Shown one piece after another: positions 27,958 through 39,300 of a stretch of DNA of 39,300 bases (position 1 is its first letter; every line of letters begins with the position of its first letter). The stretch is from Escherichia phage vB_EcoP_F. The position numbers and the translations under genes were made by a program. The notes beneath the pieces are model-generated. The model was not told the DNA's origin. It was given only the letters and a program-made list of their open reading frames with translations, and ran no database searches. Location: sequence record NC_047808.1; one strand, written 5' to 3'.

Positions 27958-27980
27958 ACTAAACTATCACTATAGGGAGA
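27958..27980 (+). promoter_or_regulatory. phage RNA polymerase promoter (phi10 position), ACTAAACTATCACTATAGGGAGA
   Basis: Best consensus copy; GGGAGA initiating region as in T7 phi10. Confidence 0.85.
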
Positions 27981-28082: not shown

Positions 28083-29126
28083 ATGGCAAACGTTCCGGGT
28101 CAGAAAATTGGTACAGACCAAGGTAAAGGTGAATCCAGTTCCGACGCGCTGGCGTTGTTCCTGAAGGTCTTTGCTGGTGAAGTCCTGACCGCATTCACTC
28201 GCCGCTCTGTAACCGCTGACAAACATATTGTCCGTACCATTCAGAACGGTAAGTCTGCTCAGTTCCCGGTCATGGGTCGCACCTCTGGTGTGTATCTGGC
28301 TCCAGGTGAGCGACTGTCCGATAAGCGTAAAGGTATTAAACATACCGAGAAAGTGATTACCATTGATGGTCTGCTGACTGCCGATGTGATGATTTTCGAC
28401 ATTGAAGACGCGATGAACCACTATGACGTGGCTGGCGAGTATTCCAACCAGCTAGGTGAAGCTCTGGCTATCGCTGCCGATGGTGCGGTTTTAGCTGAAA
28501 TGGCTATCCTGTGCAACCTCCCGGCTGCATCCAACGAGAACATCGCTGGTCTGGGTACTGCGTCCGTCCTGCAAGTTGGTAAGAAAGCTGACCTCGACAC
28601 CCCGGCTAAACTGGGCGAAGCAATCATCGGTCAACTGACCATTGCTCGTGCGAAGCTGACCTCCAACTACGTTCCTGCTGGCGACCGTTACTTCTACACC
28701 ACGCCGGACAACTACTCTGCAATCCTCGCGGCTCTGATGCCTAACGCTGCTAACTATGCTGCGCTGATTGACCCAGAGACTGGTAACATCCGTAACGTGA
28801 TGGGCTTCGTTGTTGTTGAAGTTCCTCATCTGGCACAGGGTGGTGCTGGTGAGACTCGTGGTGAAGATGGTATCTCTATCTCTTCTGGTCAGAAACACGC
28901 ATTCCCGGCGGCTGCTACTGGAGACGTTAAAGTTGCTATGGACAACGTTGTTGGTCTGTTCTCTCACCGTTCTGCTGTGGGTACTGTGAAGCTGCGTGAC
29001 TTGGCGCTGGAACGTGACCGTGACGTAGATGCTCAGGGCGACCTGATTGTTGGTAAATACGCTATGGGTCACGGTGGTCTGCGTCCTGAAGCGGCTGGCG
29101 CACTGGTTTTCAGCCCAGCGGCGTAG
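28083..29126 (+). CDS. major capsid protein gp10A
   Basis: 347 aa; extensive identity to recalled T7 gp10A (KSAQFPVMGRT, IKHTEKVITIDGLLTADV, YAMGHGGLRPEAAG). Confidence 0.95.
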   Translation: MANVPGQKIGTDQGKGESSSDALALFLKVFAGEVLTAFTRRSVTADKHIVRTIQNGKSAQFPVMGRTSGVYLAPGERLSDKRKGIKHTEKVITIDGLLTADVMIFDIEDAMNHYDVAGEYSNQLGEALAIAADGAVLAEMAILCNLPAASNENIAGLGTASVLQVGKKADLDTPAKLGEAIIGQLTIARAKLTSNYVPAGDRYFYTTPDNYSAILAALMPNAANYAALIDPETGNIRNVMGFVVVEVPHLAQGGAGETRGEDGISISSGQKHAFPAAATGDVKVAMDNVVGLFSHRSAVGTVKLRDLALERDRDVDAQGDLIVGKYAMGHGGLRPEAAGALVFSPAA

Positions 29127-29256
29127 CACCTTTAGCCAACCTAACGTCGCTACAGTAGCGGCTGCACCTGAAGAGGAGACTCTAACTCCTCAACAGAAAG
29201 CTGCGCGTACTCGTGCTGCGAACAGGGCCGCTAAACTGGCTGAGACCAACAACTAA
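29110..29256 (+). other. 10B-like capsid C-terminal extension ORF in the +1 frame relative to 10A (frameshift-dependent)
   Basis: +1 frame open 29047..29256 encodes ..NVATVAAAPEEETLTPQQKAARTRAANRAAKLAETNN, resembling recalled T7 10B tail; slippery GGTTTTC at 29105..29111. Confidence 0.5.
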
Positions 29257-29262
29257 TTGAAA

Positions 29263-29299
29263 CCCCTTGGGTGCCTTCGGGTGCCTGAGGGGTTTTTTT
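29263..29299 (+). terminator. intrinsic terminator (Tphi position): CCCCTTGGGTGCC-UUCG-GGTGCCTGAGGGG + T7
   Basis: 13-bp stem (with G-U pairs), UUCG tetraloop, seven T residues; directly after capsid gene. Confidence 0.8.
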
Positions 29300-29318
29300 G
29301 CTTAAAGTGAGGATGATT

Positions 29319-29408
29319 ATGTTTTACTTACTTACAGCCTTGGGACTATTTGTTAGTTTCTGGGCGATTATATTATTAACCGGACCATGCAGTCCTTACG
29401 ACAGATAG
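29319..29408 (+). CDS. hypothetical small hydrophobic peptide, 29 aa, between terminator and gene 11
   Basis: GAGG RBS; MFYLLTALGLFVSFWAIILLTGPCSPYDR; low certainty. Confidence 0.3.
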   Translation: MFYLLTALGLFVSFWAIILLTGPCSPYDR

Positions 29409-29416
29409 GAGGGAGT

Positions 29417-29983
29417 ATGGCTCAATACATTCCACTGAATGCTAACGATGACTTAGACGCTATCAACGATATGTTAGCTGCTATCGGTGAACCGGCAGTC
29501 CTACAGCTTGACGAGGGGAACGCTGACGTCTCGAACGCCCAACGTATCCTGCATCGTGTCAATCGTCAGGTCCAAGCTAAAGGCTGGAACTTTAACATCA
29601 ATGAAGCTGCTGTCCTGACACCTGATGTCCAAGACAATAGGATTCGATTCTTGCCGTCATACCTTCGTGTAATGACCGCTGGGGCCACCAGCTACTACAG
29701 CAACATGGGTGGATACCTGTACGACCTGTCCACTCAGTCGACCACTTTCACCGACCCTATCACGGTAGAGCTTGTGGAGATGAAGCCATTCTCCGAGATG
29801 CCTGTGGTCTTCAGGGACTACATCGTCACTAAAGCTAGCCGTGAGTTCAACGCTAAGTTCTTCGGTAGCCCAGAGTCTGAACTGTACCTTCGTGAGCAGG
29901 AAGCAGAACTCTATCAGCAGGTCATGGAATACGAGATGGATACTGGTCGCTACAACATGATGTCTGACATCGGGAGAGACTAA
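29417..29983 (+). CDS. tail tubular protein A gp11
   Basis: Start ATG 29417 (GGAGGGAG RBS); AAIGEP, KGWNFNINE, FRDYIVTKASREFNAKFFG, MEYEMD match recalled T7 gp11. Confidence 0.9.
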   Translation: MAQYIPLNANDDLDAINDMLAAIGEPAVLQLDEGNADVSNAQRILHRVNRQVQAKGWNFNINEAAVLTPDVQDNRIRFLPSYLRVMTAGATSYYSNMGGYLYDLSTQSTTFTDPITVELVEMKPFSEMPVVFRDYIVTKASREFNAKFFGSPESELYLREQEAELYQQVMEYEMDTGRYNMMSDIGRD

Positions 29984-30210
29984 TGTCTAGTCACAACCTG
30001 AAGATTCGCCGCCAGCACTTTGGTCCGGTACAGCTAGGTCTAAAGACAGCAGAGCTGAGACTTAACGACCGGGACTTTAAGGTTGGAGATTGGCTTATCC
30101 TGAATGAGTGGGACAACGGGTATACTGGACAACAGGTAGCGCGTAAGGTTGTCCACATTGCTGACGTTGGTGACATCGCTGAAGGATACGTCCTAATGAG
30201 TATAATTTAA
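29983..30210 (+). CDS. small ASCH/PUA-like (DUF3850-like) protein inserted between tail tubular genes
   Basis: 75 aa; pattern LKI..QHFGPVQLGLKTAELRLNDRDFKVGDWLIL resembles DUF3850/ASCH family by motif; ATGA coupling to gene 11. Confidence 0.45.
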   Translation: MSSHNLKIRRQHFGPVQLGLKTAELRLNDRDFKVGDWLILNEWDNGYTGQQVARKVVHIADVGDIAEGYVLMSII

Positions 30211-35994: not shown

Positions 35995-38900
35995 ATGGCG
36001 ACTCGTGGTATTCGCAATAACAATCCGGGTAACATCCGGGTAAGTAAGGACCAATGGGAAGGAATGACTGGAGATGATGGCGCATTTGTCACCTTCGATA
36101 GTCCAGAGTCTGGCGTCCGAGCTTTAGGTAAAAACCTGCTGTCCTACGGTCGCCGAGGTTATGACTCCATCGAGAAGATTATCAACCGATGGGCACCTCC
36201 TAACGAGAACGACACTAAGGCTTATATCGACTCAGTGGTGGCTGCAACTGGTATTCCAGCTACCCAGAGTCTCGACCTATCGGACCCTGACACCCTGTCT
36301 TCTCTGGCTCAAGCTATCAGCTTCCATGAGACAGGCTCCCGGTACGACCCTGAAGTCTATCAGAAGGGAGTCGCACGAGCACTCAATGGCATTAGCCCAA
36401 AGACTCCACCAGTAAGCGCTAACGTATTTGACGCACTCACGGAAGGACTCAAGGCTAAACCTAAAGTAGCTCTGGGCGAGAACCTTCCGACCGCTGCTGG
36501 TCTAAACATTGAGGGTCAAGCACCTGAAGCTCCCAACGAATCGTTCGGTGAGATGTTCTATAAGTCTACTGGCGAGACCATGCAGGAACGAGAGGATCGC
36601 TCTACGTGGTTCGGTTTCGGCTCGGCTACAGAAGCTGAAGTGAAGAACTCTATGGTCGGCGTGGCTATCCGCGCTGGTCAGACCGAGGACTCACTTGATG
36701 TCATTGGCGATGTGTTCAACCCTACCCGCTGGAACAACCATAAGTGGACTCGTGAAGAGCTTGACCAGATTCGTAACGCTGGGGTTCTGCCTCAGTATTA
36801 CGGAGTAATTACTGGCGGTTCTCCTCAGAATCTGACAGAGCTGATCAACTTGGCGTTGGAGAACCAGAAGTTGGACCAAGAGAAGGCCAAGGCTGGGACT
36901 GGTGCTCAGTTAGCTGCTGGTGTGATTGGCGCTGGTGTGGATCCTCTGACCTACGTTCCTATCGCTGGACAGATTGGTAAGGGTGGCAAGCTGGTCAACA
37001 AGATGTTCACCGTTGCTGCTCAATCTGGAGCACTTGCTGGTGTATCAGAGATGGCCCGTACCTCAGTGGCTGGTGGTGATGCTCATGTGGCTGAGGCTAT
37101 CCTTGGCGGTGCTCTCTTCGGCGGAGGCATGACTGCTATCGCTGATGGTTTAGGCAGAGCCTTAGGTCGCAACACTAATGAGTTCGCTGGCCCAGCTACA
37201 CGTCTGGAAGCTCGTGAGACCGCTCGTAACATTGATGGTCAGGACCTGTCTCGTCTCCCTATTCAGGAAGGTGAGCAGACCTTTAGTCATCAAGGCGTTA
37301 AGTTCGCCGACGTTCCGAATGAGCCTGGTAGTGTGCGGCTGGAGGATGGTTCAATCCTGATTGGTGAGAACCCTCTGAACCCTAAGACACGTAAGGTCTT
37401 TGACGAAGTGATTGAGCCTGAACGGGCCGCTGCTGGTGTGAACCTTGGTGGTCTGACTGAGATTGGCCTGAAGCTGCTTCGGTCTGAGAACCCTGAGATT
37501 CGTGGAGTAGCTGCTGACTTAGTGCGTTCACCGACTGGTATGCAGTCTGGGGCCTCAGGTAAAATCGGGACCACTGCGTCTGACGTATTCGAGAGACTTC
37601 GTGCTGTGGACCATCGGTTCTACAATGACATCGACGATGCGGTTACTGAGGCCCTAAAGGACCCGTACTTCCAGACAGCATTCTGGCGAGACTCTGGAGC
37701 ATTCCGTCAGGACATCTACCAGCGTGTGTCTATGGCTATCGAAGATGGTAGCGGAAACCTGAAGGCTGAACTGACTCCGGGAGAACTGAAAGTCTATGAC
37801 CTGCTGAAGAACCAGTTTGACGCCAAGCGTGAGATGATGGAGAACCCGGCGATGTTTGGTCGTCCAGACGCTCAGTCTATCTTTCCGGGCAGCCGCTTCA
37901 AGGGAACCTACGTCCCGCATGTGTATAGCAACCAGATGAAGGAGCTGTACATCAAGGAGCTTGGGAGTCCAGAGGCACTACAGGAGGCCATCAAGAAGTC
38001 ATGGTTGACCAGCTATGCGTCTCGACCTGAGGTCAAGAAACGTGTGGACGAGGCACTCTTAGAGGCTGACCCTACGTTGACTCCAGAAGGACTTGCGGCT
38101 GCGGTCGATAAGTACGCCAACGATAAGGCTTATGGTATCTCTCACACCGAGCAGTTCGAGCGTTCATCCGTAATGGAAGAGAACATCAATGGTCTGGTGG
38201 GTCTGGAGAACAACAGCTTCCTTGAGGCTCGTAACCTGTTCGATAGCGATATGTCAATCGTCCTACCTAACGGTCAGACCTTCAGTGTCAACAACCTGCG
38301 TGAGTGGGACATGGACAAGATTGTCCCGGCCTACAACCGTCGAGTTAATGGCGATATTGCTATCATGGCTGGTACAGGCAAGACCACGAAGGACATGAAG
38401 GACTTGGTTGAGACCATGATGAACAAGGCTGGGGATGACGGTAAGTTGAAAGGTGAAGTATCTACCTTACGTGACACCTTGAAGATTCTAACTGGTCGTG
38501 CTCGACGTGATGGTGCTGATGATGCAGCCTTCGCTACCGTGATGCGCACAATGACAGACCTATCGTTCTTCGCTAAGAATGCCTACATGGGTGTTCAGAA
38601 CTTAACGGAGATTGGTGGTATGCTGGCTCGTGGCAACGTTCGTGCAATGCTGCATGGAGTCCCAATTTTCCGTGACCTAGCCTTCCGTAACAAGAAGGTT
38701 GGGGCCTCAGAGATTAAGGACCTGCACAATGTTATCTTCGGTAAGGAACTGGATGACTCAATCCGTCCGTCTAAACAGGATGTCATTGACCGTCTGCGAT
38801 CTTACAGTGACCTCGGTCGTGGTACAGCTACAGCTCTGGGGACTGCCAAGTATTACACTGGCGAACTTGCAGTACGCTCTCCGTTCACTAAAGTCCTCAA

Positions 38901-39300
38901 CGGTACGACCAACTACCTGTTAGATGCTGGACGTCAAGGCTTCCTGTCTGACATCGTGGAGCATAGCCTGACTGGTAGTAAGCGTAAGTTCGATGACCGC
39001 TGGCTTAAGACCGCTGGTATCTCTGACGAGCAGTGGAAGGGCATTAAGTCCCTCATCCGTGAGTCAGTGACTCGTGGTCCAGACGGGAAGTACACCATCA
39101 AGGATAAGAAGGCGTTCAGTCAGGACCCAAGGGCTATGGACCTATGGCGTATGGGTGATACCATCGCTGACGAAACGTTACTACGTCCTCATAAGCTGTC
39201 CAACATGGACGCAAAGGCTTATGGTCCTCTCGCTAAGACTGTCCTTCAGTTTAAGAACTTCGTCATCAAGTCCATCAATGGACGTACCATGCGAACCTTC
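35995..39300 (+). CDS. internal virion (core) protein gp16, N-terminal part; 3' truncated by window end, continues at window start
   Basis: Open frame from ATG 35995 to last base (1102 codons, no stop), which is why it is absent from the ORF track; end ..VLQFKNFVIKSINGRTMRTF aligns with recalled T7 gp16 just upstream of the residues at window start. Confidence 0.9.
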   Translation, partial: MATRGIRNNNPGNIRVSKDQWEGMTGDDGAFVTFDSPESGVRALGKNLLSYGRRGYDSIEKIINRWAPPNENDTKAYIDSVVAATGIPATQSLDLSDPDTLSSLAQAISFHETGSRYDPEVYQKGVARALNGISPKTPPVSANVFDALTEGLKAKPKVALGENLPTAAGLNIEGQAPEAPNESFGEMFYKSTGETMQEREDRSTWFGFGSATEAEVKNSMVGVAIRAGQTEDSLDVIGDVFNPTRWNNHKWTREELDQIRNAGVLPQYYGVITGGSPQNLTELINLALENQKLDQEKAKAGTGAQLAAGVIGAGVDPLTYVPIAGQIGKGGKLVNKMFTVAAQSGALAGVSEMARTSVAGGDAHVAEAILGGALFGGGMTAIADGLGRALGRNTNEFAGPATRLEARETARNIDGQDLSRLPIQEGEQTFSHQGVKFADVPNEPGSVRLEDGSILIGENPLNPKTRKVFDEVIEPERAAAGVNLGGLTEIGLKLLRSENPEIRGVAADLVRSPTGMQSGASGKIGTTASDVFERLRAVDHRFYNDIDDAVTEALKDPYFQTAFWRDSGAFRQDIYQRVSMAIEDGSGNLKAELTPGELKVYDLLKNQFDAKREMMENPAMFGRPDAQSIFPGSRFKGTYVPHVYSNQMKELYIKELGSPEALQEAIKKSWLTSYASRPEVKKRVDEALLEADPTLTPEGLAAAVDKYANDKAYGISHTEQFERSSVMEENINGLVGLENNSFLEARNLFDSDMSIVLPNGQTFSVNNLREWDMDKIVPAYNRRVNGDIAIMAGTGKTTKDMKDLVETMMNKAGDDGKLKGEVSTLRDTLKILTGRARRDGADDAAFATVMRTMTDLSFFAKNAYMGVQNLTEIGGMLARGNVRAMLHGVPIFRDLAFRNKKVGASEIKDLHNVIFGKELDDSIRPSKQDVIDRLRSYSDLGRGTATALGTAKYYTGELAVRSPFTKVLNGTTNYLLDAGRQGFLSDIVEHSLTGSKRKFDDRWLKTAGISDEQWKGIKSLIRESVTRGPDGKYTIKDKKAFSQDPRAMDLWRMGDTIADETLLRPHKLSNMDAKAYGPLAKTVLQFKNFVIKSINGRTMRTF

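Follow-up and report, generated by a model that had tools for sequence, protein, structure and literature searches.

The gene 10 locus

The window, by which we mean the whole 39,300-nucleotide stretch of DNA that was analysed, belongs to the genus Kayfunavirus (K1F-like Studiervirinae), whose members match it at 94–97% identity over 93–97% of a 24.9-kb query. It is collinear with phiYIO1-1, and the taxonomy of the record ON548433.1 (phage FFK3) agrees with this placement. The features of its capsid locus are the following.

27958–27980, plus strand: phage-RNA-polymerase promoter ACTAAACTATCACTATAGGGAGA upstream of gene 10, identical to the annotated promoter of EcoDS1 at the homologous position
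28083–29126, plus strand: gene 10A, major capsid protein of 347 aa (from the list of open reading frames), ending ..GALVFSPAA, with the stop codon TAG at 29124–29126
29105–29111, plus strand: T7-type −1 slippery heptamer G_GUU_UUC (Val342-Phe343), in phase as G GTT TTC
29111–29158, plus strand: −1 frame product (from translation), QPSGV followed by the out-of-frame residues APLANLTSLQ and the stop codon TAG at 29156–29158
29125–29126, plus strand: site of a single-base deletion, GTAGC in the window and GTAAGC in relatives
29125–29256, plus strand: displaced 10B tail STFSQPNVATVAAAPEEETLTPQQKAARTRAANRAAKLAETNN (from translation), which counted from 10A lies in +1, with the stop codon TAA at 29254–29256
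29259–29300, plus strand: late transcription terminator hairpin with a 17 bp stem plus a T run (from a terminator scan)

The 10A product matches the Pfam family Gp10A-like (PF21703) over profile positions 1–279 of 279 with E = 6e-105, and its gene shares 95–97% nucleotide identity with Kayfunavirus capsid genes; the homologue in ON548433.1 is annotated as "capsid protein". The heptamer sits 19 nt, or four codons, ahead of the 10A stop. From 29111 the −1 frame reads QPSGVAPLANLTSLQ and closes 15 codons on; the +1 frame stays open over 29047–29256, where it ends in ..NVATVAAAPEEETLTPQQKAARTRAANRAAKLAETNN. These positions, including the 10A end at 29126 and both downstream stops, were given in an initial annotation of this DNA, and all of them hold in the sequence, the list of open reading frames and the translation.

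Downstream of the tail, the terminator hairpin (29259–29296) folds at −28 kcal/mol with z = −6.6 and is annotated at the same place in EcoDS1 and Penshu1. Its 5' arm contains a CCCC tract at 29263–29266, which was checked for presence rather than for function. Beyond the terminator lies an open reading frame of 36 aa with a hydrophobic core (29298–29408), the Pipis counterpart of which is annotated as a single-TM hypothetical protein. Further along, a 75-aa DUF3850 gene occupies 29983–30210 between the tail genes 11 and 12; phiYIO1-1 has no DUF3850 gene, its genes 11 and 12 abut, and Penshu1 carries a 228-nt hypothetical gene at that place. The gp16 gene is permuted in the window (~35995–39300 plus 1–581), and ON548433.1 annotates only 27–581 of it, as a "hypothetical protein", with nothing after 35990.

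Homology of the displaced tail

The initial annotation described a T7 10B-like tail in the +1 frame, and this resemblance to 10B is, judged from sequence comparison, true homology and not chance. The window tail matches the T7 10B tail by BLASTP with E = 3e-11 and 23 identities in 36 positions, and its +1 reading is identical to the −1 tail of K1F-like relatives at 47 of 48 residues. Of the 43 tail residues encoded from 29125 on, a single amino acid differs from the relatives' −1 frame.

The arrangement in the relatives is the familiar one. Their −1 frame at the slippery site reads QPSGVSTFSQPNV... (also given as QPSGVSTFSQPNVATVAAAPEEETLTPQQKAARTRAANRA.KLAESNN), and in these phages and in K1F it runs as QPSGVSTFSQPNVATVAAAPEEE...SNN for 48 aa to complete a 391-aa 10B. 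This tail-bearing −1 frame opens just 34–73 nt ahead of the 10A stop, and the relatives' +1 frame closes after 8 codons, about 10 nt past that stop.

A single missing base

Alignment of window positions 29080–29270 with Pipis, Penshu1 and EcoDS1 contains exactly one gap, located in the window at GCGGCGT-AGCAC. The context of the 10A stop reads GCGGCGTAAGCAC in the relatives and GCGGCGTAGCAC in the window (GCG GCG TAA GCA C versus GCG GCG TAG CAC), and because the two readings differ by that base, the window lacks one A at 29125/29126. A blastn comparison with phiYIO1-1 places a 1-nt deletion at window position 29125, and all Kayfunavirus examined, K1F included, have TAAG at the 10A stop where the window has TAG.

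The frame that is homologous to 10B changes at this point. Before the deletion, the window's −1 frame corresponds to the relatives' 10B (QPSGV), and after it the +1 frame does (STFSQPNVATV...). Such a switch exactly at the missing base is, as read from the alignment, the signature of a 1-nt indel and not of another recoding mechanism. The deletion shifts all 3' sequence by one base and therefore moves the tail from −1 to +1; it also turns the 10A stop from TAA into TAG, and because TAA-G becomes TAG, the stop is kept and 10A is untouched. The alternative that the initial annotation set beside its headline was an indel of 1 nt against the T7 arrangement, and the missing A bears it out. A 1-nt indel, rather than a programmed −2/+1 shift, almost certainly accounts for the frame of the tail.

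Conservation of the frame arrangement

A survey of capsid genes covered 78 loci from IMG/VR together with T7, K1F, Pipis, Penshu1, EcoDS1 and phiYIO1-1, and 31 of these genes have an in-phase G_GTT_TTC at most 40 nt from the stop. The in-phase heptamer is common to T7, K1F and 28 other relatives. In 30 of the 31 genes, T7 and K1F included, the long extension (45–94 aa) lies in the −1 frame, and the −2/+1 frame there runs for 7–28 aa. The window is the sole case in which this is reversed, with 15 in −1 versus 48 in +1. The GenBank matches agree with the survey. All 59 of the other (non-self) records listed span the query length plus one base; a 61-nt query with the window version, centred on the site, is 100% identical to FFK3 only, and a 62-nt query with the TAAG version is 100% identical to 29 records. 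In IMG/VR, the TAAG version has 4 exact matches and the window version has 0. The +1 arrangement is thus found in 0 of the 30 other capsid genes with the in-phase heptamer and in 0 of the 59 other GenBank records listed. The alignment that the initial annotation proposed as its check on frame conservation shows that the +1 arrangement is not kept: the relatives, T7 and K1F all use −1.

Annotation of the extension is uneven across these phages. Joins in the −1 frame are annotated in T7, T3 and Penshu1, and many Kayfunavirus records, such as K1F, phiYIO1-1 and Pipis, carry no 10B join. EcoDS1 (EU734172.1, locus L004) has no join either, the sole mark being a "region of similarity to gp10B", even though the −1 frame of EcoDS1 is unbroken and arranged identically to that of K1F.

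The −1 extensions of T7-like capsid genes are modular, with four kinds across the surveyed loci (L017, L020–L030, L035, L042, L047, L050, L053, L055, L061 and others). The first is the K1F/T7-type charged tail of 45–56 aa, the second a module of about 94 aa (..TFKALSTEG..SYSRRTNSLYFKAT..), and the third a T3-type Ig-like extension, single or in tandem (L055). In the fourth, the −1 frame has not closed by the end of the locus, about 400 codons on (L047, L061). Several 10A relatives at 94% identity to the window bear the 94-aa module and not the K1F tail; finding this module in close 10A relatives suggests, at the level of sequence, that modules are swapped at the frameshift site. In the IMG/VR locus L021, the −1 capsid extension continues into the small open reading frame that follows the terminator (..TPEWFFLLKVRMIMFYLLTALGLFVSFWAIILLTGPCSPYDR), and this run-on apparently arose by deletion of the tail end together with the terminator.

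Proposed recoding in the +1 direction

The headline of the initial annotation was a −2 (equivalently +1) shift at the slippery run. A programmed or compensatory slip of this kind at G_GUU_UUC would yield a 391-aa 10B-like protein (..GALVF-SAQRRSTFSQPNV..), with ..GALVFSAQRRSTFSQPNV.. as its junction peptide. The initial annotation had put the fusion at about 397 aa, a figure that becomes 391 aa when the tail is joined at Phe343 (343 + 48). The arterivirus −2 shift site, G_GUU_UUU, is close to the one here, and the arterivirus shift requires a viral protein as trans-activator. Phage Mu and arteriviruses are established cases of −2 frameshifting (PMC5009743), and the +1 frame of the window, entered at 29047, contains no stop through the shift site. 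The initial annotation said that the four-U run lets Phe-tRNA re-pair, and the A-site tRNA-Phe does re-pair perfectly two bases back (UUC to UUU). The P-site tRNA-Val would face UGG in place of GUU, with no re-pairing.

Other evidence speaks against this slip as well. With the +1 arrangement confined to the window genome among the comparable capsid genes, there is no conservation that would suggest selection. Because the arrangement stems from one deletion downstream of the site, neither the shift site nor its context has changed in favour of −2. Folding of the stretch of 89 nt that follows the site, in search of a stimulator made or lost through the deletion, gave z = −2.4 for the window and −1.7 for a relative (Pipis); these values are not clearly significant and the two folds differ from each other, so that they say little either way. 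Furthermore, the −2 product would swap QPSGV for SAQRR, which matches no relative. The −2 slip is therefore very improbable as the origin of the arrangement. A compound reading is very improbable too: it combines a real deletion with tRNA-Phe slipping by −2 on the four-U run, at a low level that would leave the phage with some full-length 10B-like protein. If it were true, G_GUU_UUC, a site evolved for −1, would branch to −1 and −2 products in E. coli in vivo.

The +1 frame has also to be considered as a gene in its own right, since 29047–29256 appears as a free-standing entry in the mechanically generated list of open reading frames and could be initiated independently to give 69 aa from the TTG at 29047. 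Inspection of the sequence finds no Shine-Dalgarno ahead of 29047, however, and the first 26 codons of the frame are out-of-frame capsid sequence. The frame itself owes its existence to the deletion, the corresponding +1 frame of the relatives being closed shortly after the 10A stop. A small gene of this kind is scarcely credible.

Two further routes to the tail were considered and rejected. For a +1 shift elsewhere in the overlap of the 0 and +1 frames (29047–29126), inspection of the codons found no prone site, and re-pairing fails at GUU_UUC, CCA_GCG and GCG_UAG. Read-through of the new TAG leaves the tail out of reach, for the 0 frame next reads CAC CTT TAG.

A real mutation or a sequence error

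The missing base can be either a mutation of the phage or an error of its record, and anything more exotic than these two is hardly to be expected. We read the locus as a T7/K1F-type gene 10 cassette with a one-base lesion, and give a probability of roughly 0.6 to the view that the phage itself lost the base, very recently, and that the record is not in error.

It is conceivable, and should be taken seriously, that the A is missing only in the consensus and that the true FFK3 genome has TAAG and makes a normal 391-aa 10B (..GALVFQPSGVSTFSQPNV..) by −1 slippage. The deletion is a single-base difference inside a stretch that is 97–98% identical, and no other of about 70 close records has it. In its displaced frame the tail is undecayed, with no stop and one residue that differs from the relatives, which fits an artefact equally with a very recent mutation. 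In addition, ON548433.1 is loosely curated, being circularly permuted inside gp16 and leaving gp16 unannotated, and the 486 sites at which the window and this record differ are a hint of consensus-calling trouble or a mixed population.

Against an error stand the quality of the data and the position of the lesion. FFK3 was sequenced by Illumina MiSeq at more than 1000x and assembled with SPAdes (PMC9697832). The deletion falls in an AA dinucleotide, with no long homopolymer. There are few spots where a random error would leave every essential open reading frame unbroken, and it would have had to hit one of them by accident; 10A keeps a functional stop. Genome-wide blastn against phiYIO1-1 found no other uncompensated frame-breaking indels in well-aligned coding DNA, where the gap at 29125 is the sole isolated one, and all large genes have their expected lengths. 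Pervasive assembly indels were considered and set aside: blastn reports many frame-breaking gaps relative to phiYIO1-1, but in the divergent early region most of them are closely spaced, of opposite sign and largely cancel, and they were read as alignment artefacts.

The differences between the window and ON548433.1 can be described more closely. The two have the same length (39,300 bp) and the same start point, and are separated by 486 substitutions (1.24%) and 0 indels. Among the 227 substitutions in 11 large coding sequences, 180 fall in third codon positions; 177 are synonymous and 50 non-synonymous. Between 22 and 28 kb there is just one substitution. The window carries the phiYIO1-1 allele at 314 sites and the record does so at 132. 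This variation looks natural. The authors of the FFK3 report keep the raw data of their phage and name vB_EcoP_F (NC_047808.1) as its closest relative (PMC9697832).

Predicted products of the lesioned cassette

If the deletion is a real mutation, −1 slippage would still occur at 29105–29111 at the usual rate, because the shift site and the sequence ahead of it are as in the relatives; in T7 gene 10 the −1 rate is about 10% (PMC1635266). The slipped product would then have 358 aa, consisting of 10A residues 1–343 followed by the 15-codon −1 reading, and would replace the 391-aa 10B. A −1-only product of this length would be recognizable by the junction peptide ..GALVFQPSGVAPLANLTSLQ. The conserved tail would be left untranslated, save for an incidental trace. 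The phage presumably tolerates this loss since the 10B extension is an appendage on the surface that it can do without. T7 10B is non-essential (PMC5592923), and it ends in an unstructured C-terminal surface extension, which is swapped out in display vectors (PMC8923235); both points favour a real deletion.

The 10A/10B −1 frameshift of T7 and K1F is a textbook case, and the lesion carries little weight for biology and some for annotation. Should the deletion be real, FFK3 would be an isolate from nature without the conserved 10B tail and would provide field evidence for the dispensability of that tail in K1F-like phages; should it be an error, the GenBank record calls for correction. The lesson is that an odd frameshift direction calls for a check of the relatives before a mechanism is proposed.

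Comparison with known systems

A T7-type cassette is expected to yield two capsid species in virions at a ratio of about 9:1. The window shares its parts with T7 gene 10A/10B: a homologous capsid protein (PF21703), the same in-phase heptamer at the same place shortly ahead of the 10A stop, a homologous charged tail (..EETLTPxQxAARTRAAN..), and a CCCC-bearing phage-polymerase terminator hairpin after the tail. A review of recoding names G_GUU_UUC as the site of the T7 gene 10 shift and reports an effect of the CCCC in the T7 terminator on frameshifting in gene 10 (PMC5009743). The tail is 56 aa long in T7 and 48 aa in the K1F type. Unlike that of T7, the window tail stands one base off −1, and a slip into −1 therefore meets a stop after 15 codons.

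K1F is likewise a Kayfunavirus with a 347-aa 10A (..GALVFSPAE) and G_GTT_TTC, and its tail, QPSGVSTFSQPNVATVAAAPEEETLTPQQKAARTRAANRADKLAESNN, lies in −1. Use of this −1 tail has been shown experimentally with a K1F g10b::gfp phage, in which GFP at the end of the −1 tail gave stable fluorescent virions (PMC6277420). GFP on every major subunit confounds an inference that had been counted against the real-mutation reading.

T3 gene 10B departs further from this pattern. From a reading of the sequence, its apparent shift site is different, with CCCAAAG where the window has GGTTTTC. As its tail T3 10B carries an unrelated Ig-like domain (PMC5009743). The −2 systems of arterivirus nsp2TF and of phage Mu tail assembly have a conserved frame arrangement (PMC5009743), whereas that of the window occurs in a single genome and derives from a downstream 1-nt deletion. 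The window arrangement has no membership in any −2 frameshift class, because it is not conserved.

The likeness to the T7/K1F cassette can be followed element by element. The window has a capsid protein of the Gp10A family, the in-phase heptamer, a homologous extension that stands in the +1 frame, and a CCCC terminator hairpin present downstream. What it lacks is a −1 frame open for at least 45 aa, having 15 codons there versus 45–94 in the other 30 genes, and this open extension is absent because of the 1-nt deletion at 29125/29126. By descent, the element belongs to the T7/K1F gene 10A/10B −1 frameshift cassette. The system is one already known, and its sole new item is the lesion in a single genome.
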